Assembly (NCBI GenBank): GCA_030390025.1
Contig: JASTWF010000033.1
Coordinates: forward strand, 5,272,001 to 5,336,000
From: Squalus acanthias
Lineage: Eukaryota
DNA: 64,000 bases
Direction: 5' to 3'
Positions 1,359-60,107 of the stretch are shown here, piece after piece. The position numbers and the translations under genes are program-made. Every line of letters begins with the position of its first letter. Position 1 is the stretch's first letter. The notes under the pieces were generated by a model. The model did no database searches and was not told the origin of the DNA. It worked only from the letters and a program-made list of their open reading frames with translations.

Positions 1359-4295
1359 TCAGTACCCCATTCCTGCTTTCTCGCCATACCCCTTGATCCC
1401 CTTAGTTGTGAGTGTTATATCTAACTCCCTTTTGAATATATTTAGCGAACTGGCCTCAACAACCTTCTGTGGAAGAGAATTCCATAGATTCACCACTCTC
1501 TGGGTGAAGAAGTTCCTCCTCAGCTCAGTCCTAAATGGCTTCCCCTTAATCCTTAGACTGTGACCCCTGGTTCTAGTTTTCCCTACCATTGGGAACATTC
1601 TGCCTGCATCTAATTTGTCTAAACCAGTCAGGATTTTAAATGTCTCTATAAGATCCCCCCTCATTCTTCTGAACTCCAGAGGATACAAGTTCAGTTGACC
1701 CAATCTTTCTTGATATGTCAGTCCGGCCATCCCAGGAATCAATCTAGTGAACCTTCGCTGCACTCCCTCAATAGCAAGAATGTCCTTCCTTAAGTTAGGA
1801 GACCAAAACTGCGCACAATACTCCAGGTGTGGCCTCACCAAGGCCCTGTACAACTGTAGCATCACCTCCCTACTCCTGTACTCAAATCCCCTTGCTATGA
1901 AGGCCATCATTCCGTTTGCTTTCTTGACTGCCTGCTGCACTTGCATTCCCACCTTCAGTGACTGATGTACCATGACGCCCAGGTCTCGTTGCACGTCCCC
2001 TTTCCCTAATCTGCCACCATTCAGGTAATAGTCCGCCTCTCTATTTTTACCACCAAAGTGGATAACCTCACATTTATCCACATTGTACTTCATCTGCCAT
2101 ACATTTGCCCATTCACCCAACCTGTCCAAGTCACTCTGTAGCCTCCTAGCATCCTCCTCATTGTTCACACTGCCTCCCAATTTAGTGTCATCCGCAAATT
2201 TGGAGATATTACATTTAATCCCTTCGTCCAAATCATTAATATATAATGTAAACAGCTGGGGTCCCAGCACCGAACCCTGCGGTACCCCGCTGGTCACTGC
2301 CTGCCATTCTGAAAAGTACCCATTTACTCCTACTCTTTGTTTCCTGTGTGCCAACCAGTTCTCAATCCACGTCAACACATTACCCCCAATCCCATGTGCT
2401 TTAACTTTGCTCACCAATCTCTTGTGTGGGACCTTGTCGAAGGCCTTCTGAAAGTCCAAGTACACCACATCTACTGGTTCCCCCCTGTCCACCCTATTGG
2501 AAACATCCTCAAAAAATTCCAGAAGATTTGTCAAGCATGATTTCCCTTTCACAAATCCATGCTGACTTGGACCTATCATGTCGCCACTTTCCAAATGGTC
2601 TGTTATGACATCTTTAATAATTGCTTCCATCATTTTACCCACGACCGATGTCAGGCTGACCGGTCTATAATTCCCTGCTTTCTCCCTCCCTCCTTTTTTA
2701 AAAAGAGGGGTTACATTGGCCACCCTCCACTCCATCGGAACTGATCCAGAGTCTAAGGAATGTTGGAAAATGATCGTCAATGCATCCACTATTTCCAAGG
2801 CCACCTCCTTAAGTACTCTGGGATGCAGACCATCAGGCCCCGGGGATTTTTCAGCCTTCAGTCCCATCAATTTCCCCAATACCTTTTCCCGACTAATAAG
2901 GATTTCCCTCAGCTCCTCCCTCTTACCAGATCCTCTGACCCCTTTTATTTCCGGCAGGTTGTGTGTGTCCTCCACAGTAAACACCGAACCAAAGTACTTG
3001 TTCAATTGATCAGCCATTTCCTTGTTCCCCATTACGACTTCCCCTGTTTCCGACTGCAGGGGACCTACGTTTGTTTTTACTAACCTCTTTCTTTTTACAT
3101 ATTTATAGAAGCTTTTGCAGTCCATTTTAATGTTCTCTGCAAGCTTCCTTTCATATTTTATTTTCCCTGCCCTAATCAAACCCTTCGTCCTCCTCTGCTG
3201 AGTTTTGAAGTTCTCCCAGTCACCGGGTTTGCTGCTACTTCTGGCCAATTTGTATGCAACTTCCTTGGTTTTAATACTATCCCTGATTTCCCTTGTTAGC
3301 CATGGTTGAGCCACCTTCCCTTTTTTATTTTTACGCCAGACCGGGATGTACAATTGTTGTAGTTCATCCATGCGATCTCTAAATGTCTGCCATTGCCCTT
3401 CCACTGATAGCCCCTTAAATATCGCTTGCCAATTTAACCTCGCCAATTCACGCCTCATACCCTCAAAGTTGCCCTTATTTAAGTTCTGGACCATGGTCTC
3501 TGACTTAACTGTTTCCTTCTCCATCCTAATGTAGAACTCCACCATACTATGGTCACTCTTCCTCAGGGGGCCTCGTACCACAAGATTGCTGATTAGTCCC
3601 TCCTCATTACACAACACCCAGTCCAGGATGGCCTCCCCTCGAGTTGGTTCCTCAACATATTGGTTTAGGAAACCATCCCTTAAACACTCCAGGAAATCCT
3701 CCTCCACCGTATTGCTTCCAGTTTGAGTAGCCCAATCTATATGCATATTAAAGTCACCCATGATAACTGCCGTGCCTTTTTTGCACGCACCTCTGATTTC
3801 CTGTTTCATACCCTCCCCCACCTCACTACTGCTGTTTGGAGGTCTGTACACAACTCCCACTAACGTTTTCTGCCCTTTGGTGTTCTGCAGCTCAACCCAT
3901 ATTGATTCCACATCCTCCAAGCTGATGTCCTTCCTAGCTATTGCATTAATCTCCTCTTTAACCAGCAATGCTACCCCACCCCCTTTTCCTTTTATTCTAT
4001 CCTTTCTGAATGTTGAATACCCCTGGATGTTCAGTTCCCAGCCTTGATTGTTCTGGAGCCACGTCTCTGTAATCCCAATCACATCGTATCCGTTAACATC
4101 TATTTGCACAGTCAATTCATCCACCTTATTACGGATACTCCTTGCATTAAGACACAGAGCCTTTAGGCTTGTTTTATTAACATCCTTTGTCCTTTTAGAC
4201 TTATGATTTAGTATGGCCCTTTGTGTTTCTTGCCTTTGTTTACTCGGCCTTCCCCTATTGTTTCTCACCCTTCTAACATTTGTTTCTGACTGCAT
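1359..4295 (-). CDS. CR1 ORF2: APE endonuclease plus reverse transcriptase, 978 aa, uninterrupted
   Basis: APE motifs CLNARS, GITETW, GDFN, LDWVL, SDH; RT motifs YLDFQKAFDKVPH, GVPQGSVLGP, FADD. Confidence 0.95.
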   Translation of the reverse strand: MQSETNVRRVRNNRGRPSKQRQETQRAILNHKSKRTKDVNKTSLKALCLNARSIRNKVDELTVQIDVNGYDVIGITETWLQNNQGWELNIQGYSTFRKDRIKGKGGGVALLVKEEINAIARKDISLEDVESIWVELQNTKGQKTLVGVVYRPPNSSSEVGEGMKQEIRGACKKGTAVIMGDFNMHIDWATQTGSNTVEEDFLECLRDGFLNQYVEEPTRGEAILDWVLCNEEGLISNLVVRGPLRKSDHSMVEFYIRMEKETVKSETMVQNLNKGNFEGMRRELARLNWQAIFKGLSVEGQWQTFRDRMDELQQLYIPVWRKNKKGKVAQPWLTREIRDSIKTKEVAYKLARSSSKPGDWENFKTQQRRTKGLIRAGKIKYERKLAENIKMDCKSFYKYVKRKRLVKTNVGPLQSETGEVVMGNKEMADQLNKYFGSVFTVEDTHNLPEIKGVRGSGKREELREILISREKVLGKLMGLKAEKSPGPDGLHPRVLKEVALEIVDALTIIFQHSLDSGSVPMEWRVANVTPLFKKGGREKAGNYRPVSLTSVVGKMMEAIIKDVITDHLESGDMIGPSQHGFVKGKSCLTNLLEFFEDVSNRVDRGEPVDVVYLDFQKAFDKVPHKRLVSKVKAHGIGGNVLTWIENWLAHRKQRVGVNGYFSEWQAVTSGVPQGSVLGPQLFTLYINDLDEGIKCNISKFADDTKLGGSVNNEEDARRLQSDLDRLGEWANVWQMKYNVDKCEVIHFGGKNREADYYLNGGRLGKGDVQRDLGVMVHQSLKVGMQVQQAVKKANGMMAFIARGFEYRSREVMLQLYRALVRPHLEYCAQFWSPNLRKDILAIEGVQRRFTRLIPGMAGLTYQERLGQLNLYPLEFRRMRGDLIETFKILTGLDKLDAGRMFPMVGKTRTRGHSLRIKGKPFRTELRRNFFTQRVVNLWNSLPQKVVEASSLNIFKRELDITLTTKGIKGYGEKAGMGY

Positions 4296-4342
4296 TTTAC
4301 TTCCCCCTGTTTCGCTACATAGGTTCCCATTCCCCTGCCATA

Positions 4343-4894
4343 TTAGTTTAAATCCCCCCGAACTGCTTTAGCAAATATTACCCCGAGGACATCGGTTCCA
4401 GTCCTGCCCAAGTGCAGACCGTCCCTTTTGTACAGGTCCCACTTCCCCCAGAACTGGTTCCAATGCCTCAGGAATTTGAATCCCTCCCTCCTGCACCACT
4501 GCTCAAGCCACGTATTCAATCTCACTATAATGTTCTCTCTATTCTGATTAGCACGTGGCCCTGGTAGCAATCCAGAGATTACTACCTTAGAGGTCCTACT
4601 TTTTAATTTAGCTCCTAGCTCCCTAAATTCTGCTTGTAGGACCTCTTCCCGCTTTTTACCTATATCGTTGGTACCTACATGCACCACGACAGCTGGCTGT
4701 TCACCCTCCCTCTTCAGAATGTTCTGCAGCCGCTCCGAGACATCCTTGACCCTTGCACCAGGGAGGCAACATACCATCCTGGAATCTCGGTTGCGGCCAC
4801 AGAAACTCCTGTCTATTCCCCTTACAATTGAGTCCCCTATCACTATAGCCCTACCACTCTTTTTCCCGCCCTGCTGTGCAGCAGAGCCAGCCAT
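4343..4894 (-). CDS. CR1 ORF1 SGNH/GDSL esterase domain (5'-truncated ORF1)
   Basis: IVIGDSIVR, LPGA, HVGTND and DGLH blocks, directly upstream of ORF2. Confidence 0.85.
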   Translation of the reverse strand: MAGSAAQQGGKKSGRAIVIGDSIVRGIDRSFCGRNRDSRMVCCLPGARVKDVSERLQNILKREGEQPAVVVHVGTNDIGKKREEVLQAEFRELGAKLKSRTSKVVISGLLPGPRANQNRENIIVRLNTWLEQWCRREGFKFLRHWNQFWGKWDLYKRDGLHLGRTGTDVLGVIFAKAVRGDLN

Positions 4895-14092: not shown

Positions 14093-14207
14093 ACATCTTG
14101 TAATTCAGAGAGCTCGGTTCATAGTTTCCAGAACAAGCTACAACCCTGGGATGGAGCGAACAGCCATCTCTCTGCATTAACCGACAAGGTTGCCAATCAT
14201 TTTTTGT

Positions 14208-14280
14208 GCCCGGCTAGCTCAGTTGGTAAAGCATGAGATTCTTAATTTCAGGGACGTGGGTTCGAGCTCCACGTTGGGTG
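14208..14280 (+). tRNA. tRNA-Lys(CTT), several substitutions (possibly pseudogene)
   Basis: GCCCGGCTAGCTCAG...CTT...GGTTCGAG; full 73 nt; one D-stem mismatch and extra G-U pairs; TTTT at 14285. Confidence 0.8.
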
Positions 14281-15302
14281 AATGTTTTAAGTTTTTATGT
14301 TGCTTTCTCGGTTCAACCCCAGTTCCGAATTTCCGCGGCTGTATCACCGCGCTGCAAATGGGTCTTTATCCTACATTTTTCTCTTAATAATATAATTGTC
14401 GGTATAAGAATGAAAATAGGGCCGCGCTTCACTGCAATTGGCAGACTTAAGTTGTTATGTGCCACGCAGTCATAGAATCATAGAATGACGCAGCACAGAA
14501 GGAGGCCATTTGGCCCATCGTGTCTGTGCCGCCTGTTTGGCAGAGGTATCCCATTCATCCCACACCCCTGTTCATTCCCCATAGCCCTGTATTCCCCCCT
14601 CAAGTAATATACTTGGTAAAACTTTAAAAGGAACAGAAAGTGTTAGACGTTTAGATTCCTGACGGGCCTCAGATTTTGTCCAGTTAACATTGCCATTTGC
14701 GAGGCAGGTGTGACGTTCCAGTCACAGAATTAGAATGGCCATGTACTGGGGCCGATAACAGCCGGTCCACGTTGAGGAAGAATCAGAGGCGAGATGAGAA
14801 AACATTTTTTTACACAGCGAGTTGTTGTGATCTGGAATGCCCTGTCTGAAAGGGTGGTGGAAGCAGATTCAATAGCAACTTTCCAAAGAGAACCGGATAA
14901 TTACCTGAGGGGAAATAACACAGGATTCATTGGAAAGCTCAACCAAAAAGCCGGCACATGCAGGATGGGCCGAATGACCTTCTGTGCTGTCTCATTCTAT
15001 AATCCTATGATTCTATGTAAAGGAAGCTGGCGGGAATTGTCTAATTGAGGAGACTGGGGGAGGACAATTAGGGAGCTCCTTCAGAACGATAATCACTTGA
15101 AAAATCAATTTCTTGATTGACTTGTGTGGTTTCCATCAGTGAAATGTTTGTAAAAGCAACGGAGGAGCAGGATTGAGAGTTTTTAGTGTGGGACAGCAGC
15201 GATGTTGTTTAAGGTCAGCGAGACTTCCAGCATTTACGTACGACCAGAAGGAGTGACACCTTCTCTGGCCTCTTTGGAGAAATTCCGGGGTGCTGAGTAT
15301 GA

Positions 15303-38405: not shown

Positions 38406-39673
38406 TGTAGGGGGAGGCAGTGGGGTTAGCCTTCACCTCTGACTCAGTGAGCGGTTCGATTCGCTCCCACGCCCCTGGTTCCTGGACTTTGGACTTATTT
38501 AGGGGTTGTGAACAAAGAGTCAGTAGACAACAGGCTCTGATGAAAGAATTTTGACTTTATTAAAAGAAAAAGGTAACAAACTTAAAACACACGTAATATT
38601 TAAACACAGGTTGGAGAACACACAGACAGGCGAGGGAGAATGACGATATACAAAAAAACCTTAACCCTCCCAAAAATCCCACTATCTAGCTAGGTTTTGG
38701 TTTCAGGGGATCAGGGATAATGCTCACAAAACGAATCCTTGACAGTTGAGAGTTAGGGTTTAGAGTATTTTGAGTAAAAGGTTTTGTAAGTCCCTTGTTG
38801 CCGCGTGGTGTCCAATGGTCACTGAGGCAGTCGCTCTGGCATCTTCTTGTGTGTTGGTCTGTTTGTGAAGTTGTTGGCCTTTTTTCCTCCTCCTCCTCGT
38901 GGCTTGTGGTGTCTTTGCTGGAGCAGAGCTGAGAGAGAGAGGTCTGTGCGAGCGTTGTCAGCGAGTCGAGAGAGAGAGAGTCTTGGGGGTATAGGCCCCC
39001 AATTATACTGGTTCTGCCCCTTTGTCCTTTTCGCGCCCAAAACCCCTTACTAAAACGGTTTCCTTTAGATTTCAAATGAGCCCTGTTTATTCCATTGTTT
39101 TAGTTTTGGCGAGCTTGTTAGTTTCGATGGCTTTAACTTGGTGTTAAACATGTCCTGATAGCTTCAGATTTAGTCAAGGCCTTTATCTGCGCGCCAAAAC
39201 TTGTCCCTATTGTCCTAGGTTTTTGGTGAGCTTTTAAATCTGTCCTGTGGATACCTGGTTGATTTGTTTTTGATGAAGTAAATCGGGGTACTAAATGTTT
39301 TATTGATTTCAGGCTTCTGGTATCCTGCTTGGGCCTGGAAATTTCAAAAGAGGTCTTGGATTATTCATATTTCGATGTGTGTGTGAGGCTTTTGGGTTTG
39401 TATCTTCCTCCTTGGTAGGAAGGCAGTGTAAACACATTCCCAGACAGCTTGATTGGGCCCCAATACCCAAAGCTGTCCACTGCCTGGCCATGCCCCTCCG
39501 CAGCCTGTCTGTGTCTGTGAAAGTTGTCTTTCCCAACAGTAAGATTCAAAAAGTCATTTTCCTCAGGGTTTTTCTTCCTTGATCCTTAAAAATGTCCAAA
39601 ACTGAGGTTTTTACTTCAAATCAGTTCACTTAGGGTTCTGTTCGAGTTTCTGGGGGATTTTGCGAAGCCTACA
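38406..39673 (-). mobile_element. Solo LTR (LTR-A)
   Basis: TGTAGG...CCTACA termini; colinear with LTRs B and C; host duplication sequence continues on both sides. Confidence 0.9.
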
Positions 39674-41029
39674 ATTTCAGTATCTCATTCTTTTACTTTG
39701 CAGCCTAACCAACAGGCTTTCTATTCTGCATCTTGCCTTTTGATTTCAAGTCTGTCTCTCTCACTGAATGTCTGTCTGTCCCTCTCTCACTCACACACAC
39801 TTCCTCCCACCCACATTGAACTAAAATTTACAGTGACATGTGTAAGGGGTATCGTAATCGCTCCCACACCCCTCCGGTTCTTGGACTTTGGACTTATTTA
39901 GGGGTTGTGAACAAAATTGCAGTAAACAGGTTCTGATGAAAGAATTTTACTTCATTTATAGAAAAAGGTAACAAACTTGAAACACACGTATTACTTAAAA
40001 CACAGATGGGGAGCACACGGTACAAGCGAGGGAAATGACAATATATCAAGCAAAACCTTATCCCTCCCAAAGATCCCACTATCTAGGTCGGTTTTTGTTT
40101 TCAGGAGATCGGGGATAATGGTCACCAACGAATCCTTGACAGGATTTTTTAGAGTCTTTTGTTTAAAAGACTCCGCAAGGCCCTTGTTGCTGCGAAGTGT
40201 CCGATGGTCACTGAGGCAGTCGCTCTGGTTTCTTCTTGCGTGCTGGTCTGTTTTCTGGCCTTCTTCCTCGTGGCTTCTGGTAGGTTTTGCTGGAACAGGG
40301 AGAGAGCTGTGTACGCCTGGTCAGCCAGTCCGAAAGAGAGAGAGATTATGGCACAGGCTTTCAAGTTATACTGTTTCTTTTTTACGCCTAAAAAACTCTT
40401 ACTAAAACGGATTCCTTTTGGTTGCAAATGAACCTTGCTTAGTCCAATTGTCTAGTTTTGGCGGGCTTGCCAGTTTCGATGGCTTTACCTCAGTGTTAAA
40501 CATGGCTTGATCGTTTTCCGATTTAAACACAGCCTTACCTACGCGCCAAATCTCCATCCTACTGTTCTAGGTCTGTTGGCGGGCTTTAAAATCTGTTCTG
40601 TGGATACCTGGTTGATTGTTTTTTTTGATGGGATAATGGCTATGAAACTGTGTGATCGAAATTTTATTGTCAGGAATCGTTTTTAGATTTCCAGCCTCTT
40701 TTTTGCCCCTGGGGATTCATATTTGAATGTGTTTGTGAGTTTTTGCTTTGTCTCTTGCACCTTGGTAGGATTCGCAGTGTAAACAATTCCCAGACAGCTT
40801 GATCTGTTCACTGTTCGGCCACGACCCTCGAAGCTTGTGTCTGTGAAAGGTGTCTCTCCCAACAGTAAGATTCAAAAAGTTTCCACAGTTTGTTTTCTTC
40901 CCTGATCTTTAGGTTTTTACATCAAATAACTTCACTTAGGCCCCATCATCCCAAGATTGTATGAAAAGTCCAAAAATCACTCCCTTTAGCGCACTGTTCG
41001 AGTTTCTGGTGGATTTTGCGAAGCCTACA

Positions 41030-42309
41030 TAAGAACATAAGAACATAAGAAGTAGGAGCAGGAGTAGACCAATCGGCCCCTCGAGCCTGCTCCGCCATTC
41101 AATGAGATCATGGCTGATCTGATCCAACCTCAACTCTAAAGAACACAAGAAGCAGATGCAGGACCCGGCTACTTGGCCCCTGGGCCCGCTCCGCCACCCA
41201 CAGGGCCTTGACCGATCCGAACTCAAACTCTTGTCCAATTTCCAGCGGGAACATCCTCCCCGCATCCACCCGATCCAACCCCTTCACAATCTTATATGTT
41301 TCAATAAGATCGCCTCTCATTCTTCTGAACTCCAATGAGTAGAGTCCCAATCTTCTCAACCTCTCCTCATATGTCCACCCCCTCATCCCGGGGATTAACC
41401 GAGTGAAGCTTCTTTGTACTGCCTCGAGAGCAAGTATGTCTTTTCTTAAGTATGGACACAAAAACTGTATGCAGTACTCCAGGTGCGGTCTCACCAATAC
41501 CCTATACAACTGCAGCAATACCTCCCTGTTTTTATATTCTATCCCCCTAGCAATAAAAGCCAACATTCCATTAGCTTTCTTGATCACCTGCTGCACCTGC
41601 ATACTAACTTTTTGATTTTCTTGCACCAAGACCCCCAGATCCCTTTCTGCTGCAGTACTTTCCAGTTTCTCGCCATTAAGATAATAACTTGCTCTCTGAT
41701 TTTTCCTGCCAATGTGCATAACCTCACATTTTAAAATATTGTATTGCATCTGCCAAATCTTTGCCCACTCAGCCAGCCTGTCTATATCCCCTTGTAGGTT
41801 TTTTATGTCCTCCTCACTCTCTACTTTCCCTCCCATCTTTGTATCATCTGCAAACTTTGATATGTTACACTCGATCCCCTCCTCCAAATCTTTAATATAG
41901 ATTGTAAAGAGTTGGGGACCCAGCACCGACCCCTGCGGAACACCACTGGCTACTGGTTGCCAGTCCGAGAATGAACCATTTATCCCAACTCTCTGCTTCC
42001 TGTTAGATAACCAATCCTCCACCCATGCCAGAACATTACCCCCAATCCAGTGATTTTTTATCTTGAGTAATAATCTTTTATGTGGCACCTTGTCGAAATT
42101 CCTTCTGGAAGTCTAAATACACTACATTCACTGGATCCCCTTTATCCACCCTGTACGTTATGTCCTCAAAGAACTCGAGCAAATTTGTCAGACATGACTT
42201 CCCCTTCTTAAAGCCATGCTGACTTTGTCCTATTAAATTATGTTTATCTAAATGTTCCGTTACTGTCTCCTTAATAATAGACTCCAAAATTTTACCCACC
42301 ACAGATGTT
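41030..42309 (-). mobile_element. 5'-truncated CR1 inserted at the provirus PPT
   Basis: RT ORFs 41108-42088 and 42078-42302; (AAGAACAT)n tail abuts LTR-B. Confidence 0.92.
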
Positions 42310-42582: not shown

Positions 42583-44920
42583 TCAAGGTTCGTTCCATCC
42601 TTGGCCAAAGCCTTTATTTTGAAGCACTTCCCAAGTCCCTTCGTGTCTGGAGCGGAGCTCCCCGTCCCTTCCCCTGCTCTTTGTACACAGCGGGTAGAGA
42701 ACTATCCCGAGCTGGCAGACCACCAAAAGAGCGGGAAACCATCCTGATCCAGGAAGGCACCTCTATATTCTCGAAAATATCCCACCAGGGTGGAAATACT
42801 ATATCCAAAATCTCTGCCCCTATTTCAACTGCTTTCTGTTCCAGGGTGTATAAATGTTTTTGTGAAATCTCTACAGATTTAAGTAGGATGGTAAGATGTT
42901 CGGGTAGAGGGGGAATTTTATATCCAAAGTAAGTCACATACTTTTGCAGGTTGGTGATGTTTTCTGTTACAGTGAGGTGAACGGTGGAGGGTTCAAGAAT
43001 GGGGACAATCCGTTCCTGGGCCACTTGAAATTCTGCCTCGGGTTTAAAGCAGAAACTGCTTTCACTTACCGGACACCAGAAGTGTCCATGCTGGTAGTGG
43101 GACGCAGCTGTGGTGAGACAATATTTCCAACCCCCTATATATGCTACTTGTGGGGAAACATGGCCGCGTGCCATCACCTCCATGGTACAATTGATAGGTC
43201 GTGCGCCAGCAGCTTTAAACCCGCACTGTGGTTTGGAATAGGCGTTCAAGTGCTGGGGACACAGTATTATGTGTGAACCCGGCTCCGGCACCCAGAGAGG
43301 TCAGTATCTGTCATGGCGTGCTCCCACTTTATGACATAAGGTGGGACCGCTGTAAAACGGATGTGTGCACCCCGTTGAATGACTCCAATGTTCTCCACCC
43401 TGTATACCGGTACGGGTCGGGCTGTCCCACTCATGACCGGCATTCTCACTACTATCCCCATGATAGTGTGATTTGAACGCCCACAATCTATTGGGACAAG
43501 GTAAGCTTCAGAGGCTAGAAGAAATTGGCATGGGCTCAGCGAATTACTAAACGGGTGGATGGCTGCGAGGTGCTTGTTGCTGATCCAGGAGGGGACAAAA
43601 CCTTGCTTTAAATCCTCCAGGTTGCTACGGCCCTCGCCCAGCAACCATGCCCCGTACAGCGCACACACCTCATTCTGTGCAGCCTGATCCGATGCATTCC
43701 TATCCTCCAGTATGAGTGCATTTACTGTTTTGGCATGCCTTTCCAATTCTGCAATAATTTCCTTTAAATGAACCGTCATAGCTTGGTCCTCATGTAGCTC
43801 TGAGCCTACCACTGTGTTCCCATCGTTCAGGATCTTTCTTAACTGGGTTTTTAAACCATTTATCTGTGTCTGTAATTCCATATCATCCAGGCTATTTATT
43901 ACAGAGGACCCTGTACTATAGTCAGTGAAGACATCATTCCAGGCTCCCCTTCTTTGTCTACCCGTGCCCGTAGGGTTCTCAGGGTGGGTTCTGTATAGCT
44001 CTACCTTGTCTATATTGGCAAAATCAAATTCGTAACATTTCCTAAATATTTCCTTTAGCAGGGCCTGGTACAGCTGCTCCGTCTCCTTGAGACACCACTC
44101 AGGTAAGTATACCTCGGTAAGGTTTAATATTACTGAAGCTACTCCATAGTGTACCCACTGGTATAGTACCTTTTCGGTTGGTACTAGAACTAACCCATTC
44201 CCTGGTCCTAGTGTTGGTAGGGCACTTTTCTTCCAGGGTCGTGGGTAGGGGCTTTAGGGTGTGTGCCACGAGTTCAGTGGCATTAACTGGGACCGGAATG
44301 TGTGGGACCACGCACCCATGCAGGCTAGAATCCCAGCCTATCCCCTCCCCGGCATCTTGCCATTGGCTGGAGAAGCTGATGGATAACCCTGTGGGGCAGG
44401 CTTCCTCTGATCCCCACATACAAACATAGACTCCCTGTTCCGAATCCCACCACTTATTCCAACAAACACTTACTCCTCCTTGGGTCCCTGTGATTGTCCG
44501 GTGGGTGTCGTTCCCTAATCTTTCACAGTCGGCTGTATGGTACCCTGCGTCCCTGCTCAGCTTCCTGAGCCACCACCACCTGTTCAGCGGAATTCGTCCC
44601 TTACAGGTAAGGCACACACGCTTCCCCTCGGTGACACTGATCTTTGTGGCAACGACCTGTATTCTGGGGCATGGGAGGAAGGCCTCCCCGTACGTGAACC
44701 CGGGCTGGTTGAAGTATTTAGTAGAGTGGGACCCCAGCCACCCTGGCCACCTTCCCTCGTGGAAGTAGATGGCGAGCTCCTCCACTCCTCGCTCGCCAAC
44801 CCCTGCGGTGATGACTGGTGCTCTCACTCCTGAGCACCCATAGATGTGGGAGTCCTCCACGTCACCTCGGTCACCGATGCTCACCCCTACCAGGGCGAGC
44901 AGGAGCAGAAACCTTGTCAT
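42583..44920 (-). pseudogene. env: env: signal peptide, Ig-like domain, class I fusion protein with TM; three frameshifts
   Basis: MTRFLLLLALVGVSIG; VTEGKRVCLTC...WWWLRK...DSEQGVYVC; RQRR furin site at 43948-43959; heptad repeat; TM LLVVCQLGIVLYPLC. Frameshifts near 44222, 43278 and 42730. Confidence 0.8.
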
Positions 44921-45376
44921 TCCGAAGTCCTTTCTGTCGGGGCACACACAAAACATTTATCCATGTCCCAGAAAGGTTCTCTGGCTGGATAACTAATCAA
45001 GCCCTTAAACTTAAAAAAAAACTCTACAAACAACTAAACTAATGATAACCCATAACCACCAAAAATGCAATTACTTAAAACCGAAACAAATCTGTACGTT
45101 TGCCGCCCGTCTCCGGACGGCCAGGTCAAATCCTGTTTAGTCTCTGCCTTATGTTGCCTCTGGATGGATTGTACATCTGGGTGCAGTGCGGCCTGTACCG
45201 CCGGACACAGAAGGCTTTCCTCAAAACCGCTGGGGGTATCTTAGCATCCCAGCTGCGTCCTGTGCTGCAGCACACTATCCCCTTTGGTGTGGCTGCAGCG
45301 CCCTCGATCATATCTGTGGGCTCCTCAATGTCTGAGGCTGCAGGCTGGGGACCCTTCTCTCTCTCTTCTCCCAGTA

Positions 45377-47045
45377 CTACCTCTCCTGTGAAACCCTTAC
45401 TGTTGGAGGCTGTAGGCTGGAATCCCCAACTTTAGAACGCTCCCTGCTCTTGGGCGCTCTTCTTCGGTTTGCAACCCTCGTTGGGTGGGACCCTCTAAAA
45501 ATATACACCTGTGGCGACAGTAGCCTTTGCTGTGGCATGCGAGGAGACCTTATTAGGGCTCTGGCCACTGGGGATGTGCTTGAGTCCCACATAATCGGTG
45601 GAGTGACATCTCCTGTGAAACAACACACTGTCCCTCCCGCTGCAGTTTGTGCGTCTGCCACAGTTGCGGCTGGCTGCGGAATTCTAACTTGGGGACCATC
45701 CCCCTTTGCCCGCTGTTCCCTTTTAGGTTTAAACAGTTTGCATTGATTGATATGAAAACACTTTGTACGGCGGGGCATCTTTATGGCATAGACCATGGGG
45801 CTTGCCTTATCTACAATGTTGTAGGGCCCCGTGTACAATGTTTCGAAATTCCCTACCCGGGCAAAATTTCTCACCATCACCTGATCTCCAACCTCACACT
45901 CGTGGTGCTTGTTTGGTTCCAGCAGCAATCGGTTACACCGATGCTGTTTTCCCATGTTACTCGCAGCCTGCCAGTGGACCTATTTAAGGTGGTCCAACAG
46001 ATTCCTGACGAATCTGTCTCGGTTCACCTCCCTGAGCTGCCCTTCCGTGAGCACCGGGGCTAGCACATGTGTGGGGGTCGTCATAATTCTTCCAGTCATG
46101 AGCTGGTGTGAGGAATACCCCGTGCGTTTTGACTCGCTGGCCCGGATCCCCATTAGGACCAACGGTAAGGCTTCTACCCACTTTTTGGGTGAGTCTCCAA
46201 TCTCCTTTCACAGACTTTCTTTCATGGCACGGTTTAAACGCTCCACAATCCCTGATGACTGTGGGTTGTGGGCGACGTGCCATTTCCCTTCTATGTCGAG
46301 TACCCTGAGGGTCTCTTGCATGACCTGCCCAGTAAAGTGACTCCCCTGGTCTGACTCCAAATACAGTGGGAGCCCCCACCGTGAGAACACTTCCCTGACC
46401 AGGATCCTGGCTTTACCCAAAGCGGTTGCTGTTCGACATGGAAAAGCTTCCACCCACTTTGAGAAGACATCCAGCAAGACTAGGCAGTATCTGTAGCCTC
46501 CCTGAGCGGTGTGTAGGGGCCCGATTTAGTCGACCTGCATCGACTGCCATGGTCCCTCTACCTTCCTGATGTGTCCCATAGATATCTTCCTTTTCTGGGG
46601 GTCAGGGTTGTTAGCAGCACACACCAGACAGCCTGCACAGAACTCGCAGACATCCTTCCTCACTCCTGGCCACCATCCTGCCTGTTCCACCAGCTGCCAG
46701 GTGCTCTCTGGCCCGGGATGCCCCCCTCCTGAACCCTCATTGGCCACTTGGAGGAATTTCCTTCGGTTCTGCTGCGGCACTACCCATTGTTCCCCCCTGA
46801 ACAGCATGCCTTCTTTGTGGGTGATGGCTGCTGCGCCGTATGTGCCCTCTACCTTCTTCCCTCTAGCCAGCGTTTCCAGGACAGTTTTTAGGATGGGATC
46901 CTGTGTCTGGACCGTCTTTAGGTCCGGGTCAATGCTACCCCTGCACTCCCTTGGGTCCCTCCTCTGCCTCAGATTGCTGCTACCGGGTTTGATCCATATG
47001 GATCCCAAAACGTGCCTGTACTGGCGCCCTCTTTGGCCAACATGT
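45377..47045 (-). pseudogene. pol: pol remnant: RNase H end plus integrase (stops and frameshifts)
   Basis: DMLAKEGA; GGHPG...CAGCLVC; LDVFSKWVEAFP; SDQGSHFTG; PQSSGIVERLNR; GPY module. Confidence 0.9.
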
Positions 47046-47049
47046 CGTC

Positions 47050-48844
47050 TTGGTGATTAGACCGCCAGTGGCTGTAGCTACCTTCCCTGGGCCATCAAAT
47101 AGGACTCTGATGGCCGCTACTATTTTGTCCAGTGTGGGGGAAGAGGTCGGTGCCTCTACTTTTAGGGCAGGAGTTGGGGACTTCTTTGCTAGCCTATCCT
47201 TCCAGGGATTCCTACAGTCCTTTCTCCAGTGTCCAGTGCTCCCGCACCCGAAGCAGCTACGCTTCGTGTCGGAGGGTTTCCCATCTTACTGGTGCCGCTC
47301 CTGCTTTTCCTGACTGGGCTTTATCACATGCACCTTCCCTTTCGGTGGGGTGTCTTCAGCTCCCCTACCGTTGCGATAGGCTAGGGTCAGTTGCCAGCTC
47401 ACTGCCTCCACGGTGACCCGGGGGTCTTTCGGGTCAAATAAAAGCTCAGCCTTGGTTTTTATTCGTGGCAAGCTGTTTGCCACTAGGCTATAGCCAGTGG
47501 GCCAGCTCGTCCCTGTTCAGGTTAGCTCGATCGAGATCCCCATTTCAAGCACCCTTGTACACCGGCCACAGTCTGTCTGCGAAAGCCTATGGGGTCTCCC
47601 CTGCGAGCTGCACTGTTTTATTCACCCGGGAGAAAGGACTTCCCTCATTCATTCCCATGGACTCTAAAACCTCCTCTCTGACGGCGGCATACCCATTCCG
47701 TCCTCACTTGCTCTCAGTAGAGAGGGACTGTTTAGTTTGCAATCTAATGAGAACAGGAGCATTTTTGCCAGCTCGGCATCATCACAGTCGCTGATGCCTG
47801 CTGTCTGCTCCAACTCCATGAAGTGGACTGAGGGGTCTTCCTTTTGGGTAAGTTTACTCAGGTGGCTTACCATAGCCCTAAGCTGTTGTGTACCGTGGGG
47901 AGCCAAGAATTGACTTTCAAGGGGTCCCTGACCTCCACCACCGGCGGGCGGGCCAAACATTTGCTGTCGTGCTGGGCACATTGGCCCTGGCTCCGACTTC
48001 TTCTGCATCGGTTTGCCCTCCTCTCCCTGCTGCCAGACCGAGTCAAAACTCGGCGCCACAGGTGCTGGTGTGCACTCCCTGTCAGCATCACAGATTGTCT
48101 GCCCCTCCTGCCGCCTAACCAAGCTTCTCCTTGGCGCCACAGGTGGTGTTTGAACAGTCTCCCCTTGCTCTTCCAGGTCTACCTGGGCCGCACCCGGGCT
48201 TATCAGGCACAGCATGCCTTTTGTCTTGGACAGAGCAAGGTTCAGACTCTCAATCTGCTTCTGACAGGGACCGTGGTCCCTAACTTAAACTCCCTTGTAT
48301 TGGCGTCTCTGTAAGCTGCCTAAACATCGTTTAACTTCTCTGTGAGTTCCCTTAATTGCTTGGCAAGGCGGGTGTTCTCTTCCCGCAATGCCAGTTCACT
48401 ACTTTTGGCCTCGGTGGCCTGACACTGGAGGTATCACTTACTGGCACGGTGATCCTCCAGTATCTGTGACTGTTCCTGATCTTTTGTGCCGAGCTCTGCT
48501 AACAACTTCCCCCCATCTATACCTCTGGCACGGGACAGTTGGCTTTCTTCCTTTAGCTCTTCTGTGAGAGCCTGAATGCGCTTCCCCATAAGCTGCATAT
48601 GTTTCTGGGAGCAGACCAACCATATGCCTTTCTCCACAGACTTATTGTATTCCTTGCTCTCAGTCCATGCAGCTGCAGCGTCCATAGGACATTCAGCATG
48701 CAACAGCCTGAGGACCCATTGCTTGGTGATATTGATCTTTTTTTATACATCGGATGACATCCTCTCTTCCATTTTTGTTCTCTCCTCAAAACCACCATTT
48801 ACTGCTTCACAACCCTTTTGCCAAAGTCCTGCCGCGGTCGCCAT
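47050..48844 (-). pseudogene. gag: gag with coiled-coil N-terminal half and one CCHC zinc knuckle
   Basis: CFGCGSTGHWRKDC at 47214-47255; heptad-rich IQALTEELKEE...LREENTRLAKQLRELTEKL; lies between PBS and pol. Confidence 0.8.
48826..48843 (-). promoter_or_regulatory. Primer binding site for tRNA-Arg(TCG)
   Basis: TGGCGACCGCGGCAGGAC, 3 nt inside LTR-C; complementary to the 3' end GTCCTGCCGCGGTCG-CCA, recalled as vertebrate tRNA-Arg(TCG). Confidence 0.85.
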
Positions 48845-50043
48845 AATGTAGGGAGTGGTAGTGGGCTCAGCCTATGCATTCTGACTGTGTGAGTGGTTCG
48901 AATCGCTCCCACGCCCCTGGTTCCTAGACCTTGGACTTATTTAGGGGTTGTGAACAAAATTGCAGTAGACAACAGGTTCTAATGCAAGAATTTCGACTTT
49001 ATTAAAATAAAAAGGTAACAAACTTAAAACACACTTAATACTAAAACACAGGTTGGGGAACACACGGTACAAGCGAGGGAGATGAGAATATACCAACACA
49101 AACATTATCCCTCCCAAAGATCCCACTATCTAGCTAGGTTTTTGGTTTGAGGAGATCAGGGATAATGCTCACCAACGAATCCTTGACAGGGATTTTAGAA
49201 TCTTTTGATTAAAAGATTTCGTAAGGCCCTTGTTGCTGCGAGGTGTCCGATGGTCACTGAGGCAGTCGCTCTGGTTTCTCTTGCGTCTGTTTGTGGAGTT
49301 GTTGGTGTTCCTTTCCTCCTCCTCGTGGCTTGTTGTGTCTTTTGCTGGAGCAGGCCTGAGAGAGAGAGAGAGAGAGAGAGAGATTGAGAGAGCTGTTCCA
49401 GCGTTGTCAGCGAGTCCAAAAGAGAGAGAGTCTTGGGACAGGCTCCAATTATATTGTCTTTTTCGCGCCCAAAACCACTTACTAAAACGGTTTCCTTTTG
49501 GTTTCAAATGAGCCCTGTAAAGTCCATTGTCTTGTTTTGGCGGGCTTGCCAGTTCTGATGGCTTTAACTTAGTGTTAAACATGCCCTGATCGTTTTATGA
49601 TCTCGGCAAAGCATTATCTACGCGCCAAATCTCATCCCTATTGTCATAGGTCTATTGGCGGGCTTTTAACTCTGTCCTGTGGATACCTGGTTGATTGGTT
49701 CTTAATGAAGTGAATCGGGTTGCTTAATGTTTTATTGATTTCAAAAAGCTATTGGATTATTCATATTTCGGTGTGTTGTGAGGCTTTTGGGTTTTGTCTT
49801 TTCCTCCTTGATAGGAAGGCAGTGTAAACACACTGCCAGAGAGCTTAATACACTGCCTGGCCACGCCCCTCTGCAGCCTGTGTGTCTGTGAAAGGTGTCT
49901 TTCCCATCAGTAAGATTCGAAAAGTCATTTTCCTCAGGGTTTTCTTCTTGTAATCTATAAAAATGTCCAAAACTGAGGATTTTACCTTAAATCACTTCAC
50001 TTAGGTTCTGTTCGAGTTTCTGGGGGATTTTGCGAAGCCTACA

Positions 50044-58911: not shown

Positions 58912-59897
58912 TACATAGATACATAGAAGATAGGAGCAGGAGTAGGCCATCCGGCCCTTCGAGCCTGCTCCGCCATTTAATGAGATCATGGCTGATCCTC
59001 GAATTCAGTATCCCGTCCCCGCCTTCTCTCCGTAACCCTTAACCCCTTTTGCCTGTAGAAATATATCTAATTCCCTCTTAAATATATTTAATGAGCTGGC
59101 GTACACTGCCCTCTGTGGCAATGAGTTCCACAGGTTCACCACCCTCTGAGTGAAGAAATTCCCCCTCATTTCTGTCCTAAATGGTTTAGCCCTTATCCTT
59201 AAATTATGTCCTCTAGTTCTGTTCTCACCCGCCAAGGGAAACATTCCATCTGCATCTAGTCTGTCTAGACCTGTCAGAATTTTATACACTTCTATGAGGT
59301 CCCCTCTCAATCTTCTAAACTCCAGTGTGTACATCCCTAAACTACATAGTCTCTCCTCATAGGTCAATCCCGCCATTCCTGGTATCAGCCTGGTGAATCG
59401 CCGCTGCACCCCCTCCATGGCAAGAACATCTTTCCTCAGATGAGGCGACCAAAACTGTACACAGTACTCGAGGTGTGGTCTCACCAGTGCCCTGTACAGC
59501 TGCAGCAAGGTATCCCTGTTCCTGTATTCCAACCCTTTTGCTATGAAGGCCAGTATACCGTTTGCCTTCTTGACCGCCTGTTGCACCTGCATGCTCGCCT
59601 TCAGTGACTGGTGTACAAGAACACCCAGGTCTCTCTGTACTTCCCCCTCTCCCAATTTATTGCCATTTAAATAATAATTTGCCCTCCCGTTCCTGCACCC
59701 AAGGTGGATAACTTCGCACTTGTCCACATTATAGTGCATCTGCCATTTATCCGCCCAATCACCCAGTCTGTCCAAATCGCTCTGGAGCTTCCTGGTCTCC
59801 TCCTCTGAGCCCACCCCCCCTCCTAGTTTAGTGTCGTCTGCAAATTTGGAAATGCTGCATCCGACTCCCTGATCCAGGTCATTAATGTAAATTGTGA
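58912..59897 (-). mobile_element. Young 5'-truncated CR1 with open RT C-terminus
   Basis: Uninterrupted frame from TIYINDLD to GYGEKAGTGY; 3' hairpin and tail. Confidence 0.92.
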
Positions 59898-60034
59898 CTT
59901 TTGATGCTTGATTTCCTGACACACCTTGGAATTCATGAGAACCTAGTTCGTGTTTGCAGAGCAAGTTAAACCCCTGGGGCGGAGCCAACAGGCGCCTGAC
60001 GGCAATCAGCGACAAGGACGTACAACTTGAACAA

Positions 60035-60107
60035 GCCCGGCTAGTTCAGTCGGTAGGGCATGAGATTCTTAATCTCAGGGTCGCGGGCTCGAGCCCCACG
60101 TTGGGCG
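60035..60107 (+). pseudogene. tRNA-Lys(CTT), probably pseudogene
   Basis: Full 73-nt match; T54 changed to C in the B box and a T-stem mismatch. Confidence 0.85.

Follow-up and report, generated by a model that had tools for sequence, protein, structure and literature searches.

Does this region of the Squalus acanthias genome encode an immunoglobulin (Ig)-like domain joined to an F-like fusogen in a single protein, and what would such a domain do? The locus lies in a 64,000-nucleotide stretch of DNA (hereafter, the window). A preliminary description made from the letters alone had proposed a captured host Ig domain ahead of an F-like fusogen. The results point to a real feature belonging to one gene, probably an Ig-like head on an F-type retroviral envelope.

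The env gene and the element that carries it

The env gene is on the minus strand and is composed of the following parts (coordinates are those of the window).

44920 to about 42590, minus strand: env; its front part is the region of the preliminary description
44099-44956, minus strand: open frame with the env start (Met at 44920; a further in-frame Met upstream, at 44956)
44873..44920, minus strand: signal peptide of Env, a hydrophobic leader with a predicted cleavage site
44285..44872, minus strand: N-terminal Env head of ~195 residues, with RGD (44869-44861) at its start
44357..44647, minus strand: probable Ig V/I-set-like domain in the head (Cys 44605, Trp cluster 44578, Cys 44422)
44225..44284, minus strand: Pro/Thr-rich linker, with the first frame break of the window copy just past it
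43948..44232, minus strand: F2-like subunit, with a C-terminal basic site, RQRR (43959-43948)
42589..43947, minus strand: F1-like subunit, with breaks near 43,279 and 42,730

All the motifs and the Cys pair on which the Ig proposal had been built were found: RGD at 44869, ISVTEGKRVCLTC at 44641, WWWLRK at 44578, VSVCW at 44473, and DSEQGVYVC at 44446 on the minus strand, with the cysteines at 44605 and 44422 separated by 61 residues. The proposed Ig-like domain is probable, but it spans only about 44647-44357, half of the head at 44872-44285; the remaining half of the head is made up of two more Cys-containing stretches outside the Ig-like part. Past the Pro/Thr-rich stretch of the window copy, the F2-like sequence resumes in a different frame. 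The F1-like part has, in order, a weakly hydrophobic fusion-peptide region, a helical repeat, a Cys-rich domain, a second helical stretch, a transmembrane (TM) anchor, and a tail. The fusogen had been placed one frameshift away from the head; in fact, env of the window is in four pieces, with three breaks (near 44,210-44,230, 43,279, and 42,730).

The element around env contains the following features.

48847..50043, minus strand: 5' LTR (TG...CA), matching the LTRs of other family copies
48826..48843, minus strand: primer-binding-site-like stretch, presumably of the Arg-tRNA type, directly past the LTR end and overlapping the gag start codon
47075..48844, minus strand: gag, with stops and frame breaks; a CCHC zinc knuckle near its end; PF00098 (E 6e-5)
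45720..47058, minus strand: integrase remnant (PF17921, PF00665)
41030..42308, minus strand: LINE fragment (RVT_1), occupying the polypurine-tract site of other copies
39841..41029, minus strand: second LTR of the same family

The second LTR is only 76% like the 5' LTR and is therefore probably not its original partner; LTR-based dating of the window copy was rejected, its two LTRs being no pair. A further LTR of the family begins at 39673 and, with the LINE fragment and the 76% LTR, suggests a hybrid or nested insertion. The gag start codon abuts the LTR end (48826-48847), with no usual leader left for a packaging signal. The integrase core and env are separated by ~0.7 kb (45000-45720), the counterpart of which in other copies is an extension of the pol frame by some 200 low-complexity residues; in a second subfamily, unrelated sequence takes its place. 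Elsewhere in the window are two tRNA-Lys(CTT)-like genes (14207-14281 and 60035-60107) and long minus-strand frames at 1359-4367 and 59005-60045.

In copies of the family, gag, pol, and env are flanked by two LTRs; compared with these, the window copy lacks the protease, reverse transcriptase (RT), and RNase H (~2.4 kb) at about 47058. The natural pol frame has the dual-RNase-H retroviral order of protease, RT, tether, RNase H, and integrase (RT_RNaseH at 465-597 and RNase_H at 645-787), a dual RNase H being common to all retroviruses. Pol lies downstream of gag in one frame with it, after a stop, and would be reached by read-through. LTR pairs were found at 11/12 loci examined and were 95.7-98.7% identical at 10 of them, which makes the family young as judged by sequence. 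The source of the Env is an abundant, high-copy dual-RNase-H endogenous retrovirus family, and the paramyxovirus frame in which the locus had been placed gives way to a retrovirus-like LTR-gag-pol-env element. Neither RT nor integrase was present in 14/20 fetched copies, which retain env, 13 of the 20 having been picked for long env frames. Two recurring pol-less forms with gag and env retained were seen (L021-L040; e.g., L028:4190-5398 and L030:4444-5202), in which a shorter frame, open over at most about 400 codons and with a protease-region-like start, stands in place of pol. These look like non-autonomous lineages mobilized in trans.

The best named relatives of pol were frog and coelacanth proteins (40-45% identity), and the top named matches were automatically labeled "NYNRIN-like." Relatives of env came from one skate, three sharks, and three frogs, with only 3 shark/skate proteins recovered by a word-indexed homologue search. 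In a quick tree of 47 RTs, which contained no lokiretrovirus or foamy virus reference, the family RT fell on the retrovirus side (SH-aLRT 100), apart from Ty3/gypsy, and grouped with frog and coelacanth elements (89). By eye, the RT motifs are LPQG and QYVDD in the family versus CPFG and VYVDD in Loki-Lca, and the protease-RT spacer is shorter than in 6 published loki pol starts. Because the RT motifs and the protease-RT spacing differ, and because the RT tree contained no loki or foamy reference, we did not file the element as a lokiretrovirus.

Head and fusogen are joined in other copies of the family. A query with the head gave 6,067 first-look candidates in the genome, and the 150 that were scored were 87-100% identical; stop-free frames of at least 785 codons were present at 15 of these 150. 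When the 19 best-scoring other copies were taken, a choice in which openness of the frame played no part, the Ig segment shared one stop-free frame with the F2 start in 18. The frame ran from the head to the transmembrane region in all 13 copies fetched for long frames. The claim of a single protein is thus borne out by the 18 uninterrupted copies of 19, in which Ig and F are not separate reading frames. Contigs from three sequencing runs, presumably of RNA origin, cover env, and one contig in each spans the linker into F2; they attest to the presence of the sequence, not to transcription.

The natural Env has 796 residues, with the basic site RQRR at 339, one TM segment near 745, a helical stretch, and a Cys-rich domain. 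For residues 250-770, the nearest cluster in the ESM Atlas was Fusion glycoprotein F0 (0.92; 200/256 features), followed by baculovirus F and gypsy Env. Weak matches to PF00523 (E 0.036) and Baculo_F (E 0.0011) were given by the Env proteins of relatives; a Pfam search of the family's own Env had no PF00523 match, and a PDB sequence search for the fusogen yielded nothing meaningful, with either the single protein or a 19-sequence profile. Published loki envelopes are more hydrophobic than this one in the segment past the cleavage site. The predicted assignment of the F2/F1 part to the paramyxo/baculovirus-type (class Ib) fusogens is well supported by features of the sequence.

The dN/dS-type check suggested for the head was run as pN/pS. 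The value was 0.33 (codon bootstrap, 0.20-0.57) for 19 copies chosen without regard to openness of the frame, versus 0.73 and 0.99 in the two off-frames; pairs of copies in these comparisons are mutually dependent. The head is under purifying selection. The Ig segment alone gave 0.31, and without CpG codons 0.32 (0.10-1.62), no longer significant; the F core gave 0.22-0.34 (codon counts, 13 copies). The RGD motif, to which attention had been drawn earlier, is probably incidental: it is present in 18/20 top loci of the genome and in none of 6 homologues outside the S. acanthias genome, and attachment to integrins through it was rejected as a reading.

The N-terminal slot and its proposed task

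The part ahead of F2 varies among relatives. All of those with an N terminus begin F2 with the same CP....GP-type motif, preceded by heads of differing sequence, which are Cys-rich in two sharks, automatically named Ig-like in a third shark, and Ig-like-looking in two frogs. In a further relative, which shares 48% identity with the end of a frog gene model whose pol is the top named match, the head is of the V-set type; this frog head resembles CD84 (E 0.0016) and CEACAMs, with 10/10 matches in the Ig family. Additional families of F-type env, associated with other pol genes, are present in S. acanthias itself. More F-type env lineages, each with another head, were noticed at L053, L054, and L051, and at least four F-type env families coexist.

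A sister family displays this variation within one genome. Its F cores are 86-90% identical over about 270 residues beneath dissimilar heads (E 0.05 or worse), of the following kinds.

L043/L052: head of about 250 residues
L049: Cys-rich head of about 140 residues
L050, L068: Cys-rich head of about 90 residues
L042 type: nearly headless, the start of one head being joined to the linker of another

The L049 head had 108 matches in the genome, of which 21 span 59-99 of its 99 residues and about 83 span only the first 31-41 residues, corresponding to the nearly headless variant; the L050 head had 5. An F core followed the head at 9/9 L049/L050-type loci checked. Given the ~83 nearly headless matches, a head is dispensable for the multiplication of such an element. 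In the family of the window, two subfamilies have env flanks that are 57-82% identical around a 1.9-kb block that is 96-100% identical (three copies per subfamily), reaching from where the signal peptide ends to residue ~660. Judging from this block, the head moved together with most of the ectodomain, as a single unit; exchange of the head alone was seen in the sister family, not in the family of the window.

Other observations concern F-type env genes elsewhere. At one locus (L075), the F-type env belongs to a family that has otherwise decayed and is related to bamboo shark P0014; its long stop-free frame follows an integrase remnant and a piece of a LINE, a situation seen nowhere else among the long matches listed, and its head had no clear Ig match in PDB or Pfam. 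This env has possibly been kept by the host. The annotation of one frog genome includes sixteen near-identical F-type env proteins whose heads look Ig-like (the P0044 cluster), which suggests a recent burst in the frog as well. Public gene models join env fragments to Niban, cadherin, zinc-finger, and F-box genes (P0004, P0005, P0009, and P0039); these fusions are probably annotation artifacts.

What could such a slot be for? We favor, as rather likely, an exchangeable slot for receptor binding, in the manner of spike, on an F-type retroviral Env, with binding as a proposed property. One precursor comprises the signal peptide, the ~195-residue head with its Ig-like domain, a Pro/Thr stalk, F2, the basic site, and a membrane-anchored F1. 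It would be cleaved at RQRR, form a trimer, and drive fusion by its F1 part. Because the head precedes F2, it would remain on the cleaved trimer, projecting on the stalk. Its most likely task would be attachment, i.e., binding a cell-surface molecule and setting which cells are entered, in the way of the S1 domains of coronavirus spike or the receptor-binding domain (RBD) and proline-rich region of gammaretroviruses. The slot is exchangeable in that the fusion core is kept and the head is swapped by recombination at the linker, as the sister family shows, and domains of the Ig type occupy it in several lineages.

Several of the same observations could be explained if the head modulated or shielded against immunity, as an Ig-receptor decoy or a glycosylated cover, and the F core did the attachment. 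Of 23 lokiretrovirus Env proteins listed in PMC7947760, 22 have an N terminus, and in the sections considered here all 22 are headless, with the signal peptide leading directly into F2; these published envelopes work without a head. Also in line with shielding, the near-headless variant of the sister family multiplied, 3 of the 8 N-glycosylation sequons of Env are on the head and linker, the frog head resembles immune receptors of the SLAM/CEACAM kind, and antibody pressure is consistent with rapid turnover of heads too. We nonetheless regard shielding as unlikely, since the head is covalently joined to the entry protein, selection within the family is purifying and not diversifying, and the non-Ig, Cys-rich domains in the slot of relatives are easier to reconcile with a general-purpose binding slot than with mimicry of Ig.

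The Ig-like part of the head and its age

The attachment reading does not say what the head is made of. An Ig-like domain is likely present in about half of the ~195 residues, roughly at residues 104-200. A 116-residue segment matched Pfam Ig_3 at E 0.0028, with 18.6 bits against a cut-off of 30, i.e., below it. In PDB, which is rich in antibodies, all six matches at E up to 10 were of the Ig family (five antibody light chains and FCRL5; best E, 0.17), and in their alignments the Cys, the Trp, and G-x-Y-x-C line up in register across some 80 residues. The ESM Atlas neighbors of the head were mostly Ig clusters, at 0.86-0.87, which is a lead only. The head has the B-strand Cys, the C-strand Trp, [DE]xGxYxC, and a Cys spacing within 55-75, as expected of the V/I set. 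This V-set-like pattern arose in 12 of 200,000 shuffles of the head, a figure that overstates significance because the pattern was written post hoc, from textbook features and with the sequence known. The pattern is kept in 4/4 full-length outside homologues (P0003, P0008, P0009, and P0011).

Every one of these Ig scores is sub-threshold, no Ig protein was found among 48 matches from 1.84 billion proteins, and the segment contains an additional pair of Cys as well as a Trp-rich stretch ahead of its F-strand motif, both of which are unusual for Ig domains. The head could accordingly be a virus-specific, Cys/Trp-rich beta domain whose Ig motif is coincidental or convergent. We give this reading a small chance, a little below that of shielding, as three methods agree on Ig, the PDB alignments are in register, the canonical Asp stands ahead of G-x-Y-x-C in homologues P0002, P0003, P0008, and P0011, and a related shark Env bears the automatic database name "Ig-like domain-containing."

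If the domain is of the Ig type, where did it come from? The head is 56% identical to that of a skate element. Its similarity to the head of another family, one with a core only ~24% identical, is weak but in register (profile E 0.019, 80 columns). Since the head is shared with the skate element, and weakly with this distant env family, any capture would be old. The search for the closest host Ig protein, which had been recommended, returned no donor among the 48 matches mentioned above. Thus, the recent capture of a host domain that the preliminary description implied is not supported; on these comparisons, the Ig module of this family is old, not a recent acquisition. A donor search with the frog-type head gave 1 match among 13 candidates, a viral-type protein and no named host gene. 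In profile comparisons, homology of this head (type A) was not supported with the frog V-set head (E 0.36) or with the Pelodytes and Mantella heads (E 0.09-0.11), and the frog head matched this one pairwise at E 0.002, but out of register, so that the match was rejected. That this family took up a host Ig exon recently and just once is a reading in favor of which stand the host Ig-family genes, as the obvious source, and the still CD84/CEACAM-like frog head; it is highly improbable in view of the missing host match, the skate head, the distant head in register, and the single viral-type protein from the frog-type donor search.

Going beyond the exchangeable slot of this Env, we put forward more tentatively, as a possibility with somewhat less than even chances, a retrovirus lineage of sharks, skates, frogs, and coelacanths, distinct from loki and foamy viruses. 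It would bear a plug-in N-terminal slot on an F-type fusogen, filled by repeated capture and recombination of host Ig adhesion domains (V-set, CD84/CEACAM-like) and unrelated Cys-rich domains. If this holds, each captured domain would supply ready-made cell binding, and the lineage would be a living record of the origin of spike-like attachment-plus-fusion proteins.

Comparison with known systems

F-like envelopes are not new among retroviruses, being already known from lokiretroviruses and foamy viruses in the parts of PMC7947760 and PMC11468914 considered. The Env of lokiretroviruses, since renamed lokiortervirus (PMC9040795, in the part considered), is F-like, and 0 of 3 cartilaginous fish genomes were positive for them in the sections of PMC7947760 covered here. 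Their elements and the present one are both vertebrate LTR-gag-pol-env elements with a tether and RNase H and an F-like Env with a basic cleavage site and a TM segment, and the F2 start, GP..G.VL, is recognizable by eye in both. However, about 220 extra residues lie between the signal peptide and F2 in this family, and the fusion-peptide region, like the RT motifs and the protease-RT spacing, differs by eye. No teleost loki Env was among the named matches when 1.84 billion proteins were searched with this Env.

Foamy Env is likewise a retroviral envelope on a paramyxovirus-F scaffold. According to the portions of PMC11468914 considered, it shares the F fold and has its own receptor-binding domain, which lies between the subunits and has its own fold, whereas here the extra domain is N-terminal and Ig-like. 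In addition, gag of this family has a CCHC knuckle, which foamy Gag is not known to have. Endogenous foamy viruses of cartilaginous fish have reportedly been found and may bear on classification.

The F proteins of paramyxoviruses and pneumoviruses (PF00523), baculovirus F, and errantivirus Env share with this Env the signal peptide, F2, basic site, F1 with helical repeats and a Cys-rich domain, and TM segment. They differ in the N-terminal head, none being described for them in the part of bioRxiv 10.1101/2023.10.26.564294 considered. Paramyxoviruses use a separate attachment protein, and errantiviruses are Ty3/gypsy elements of invertebrates. Gammaretroviral SU has an RBD, a proline-rich region, and a C-terminal domain, and, comparably to the present case, its variable N-terminal binding module sits on a Pro-rich hinge and is exchanged by recombination; unlike here, the fusion machinery is of the unrelated class Ia, and the RBD is no host-type Ig domain.

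An Ig-headed or head-exchanging F-type retroviral Env was not found described in the open-access literature considered. This holds for the sections considered of PMC9040795, PMC12440569, PMC9967133, PMC8672886, PMC6001957, PMC13709493, and PMC4422223 and of bioRxiv 2023.10.17.562709, 2024.07.05.601823, 2023.10.26.564294, and 2021.11.23.469661; likewise, those of PMC11468914 and PMC12583693 contain no account of a retroviral F-type Env with an exchangeable Ig head. Of the suggested novelty of an attachment-plus-fusion architecture, the Ig-plus-F layout stands to that extent, but coronavirus spike and foamy Env already use this scaffold for both tasks (PMC11468914, in the part considered). The finding points to under-described retroviruses of fish and amphibians with F-type envelopes, in a host class from which lokiretroviruses had not been known.

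The closest working model is offered by the class I glycoproteins of coronaviruses (spike) and alloherpesviruses, in which receptor modules are N-terminal on an F-type core; N-terminal extensions in both are described in the part of the Viro3D study (PMC12583693) considered. These belong to different virus groups and are much longer proteins than this Env. The F scaffold is stated, in the part of PMC11468914 considered, to take receptor modules either N-terminally, as in spike, or between the subunits, as in foamy Env. In those cases the gain of the modules is too ancient to watch. The exchangeable slot is the most interesting part of the present finding: near-identical F cores lie under different heads in one genome, so the gain, exchange, and loss of modules become traceable and datable.
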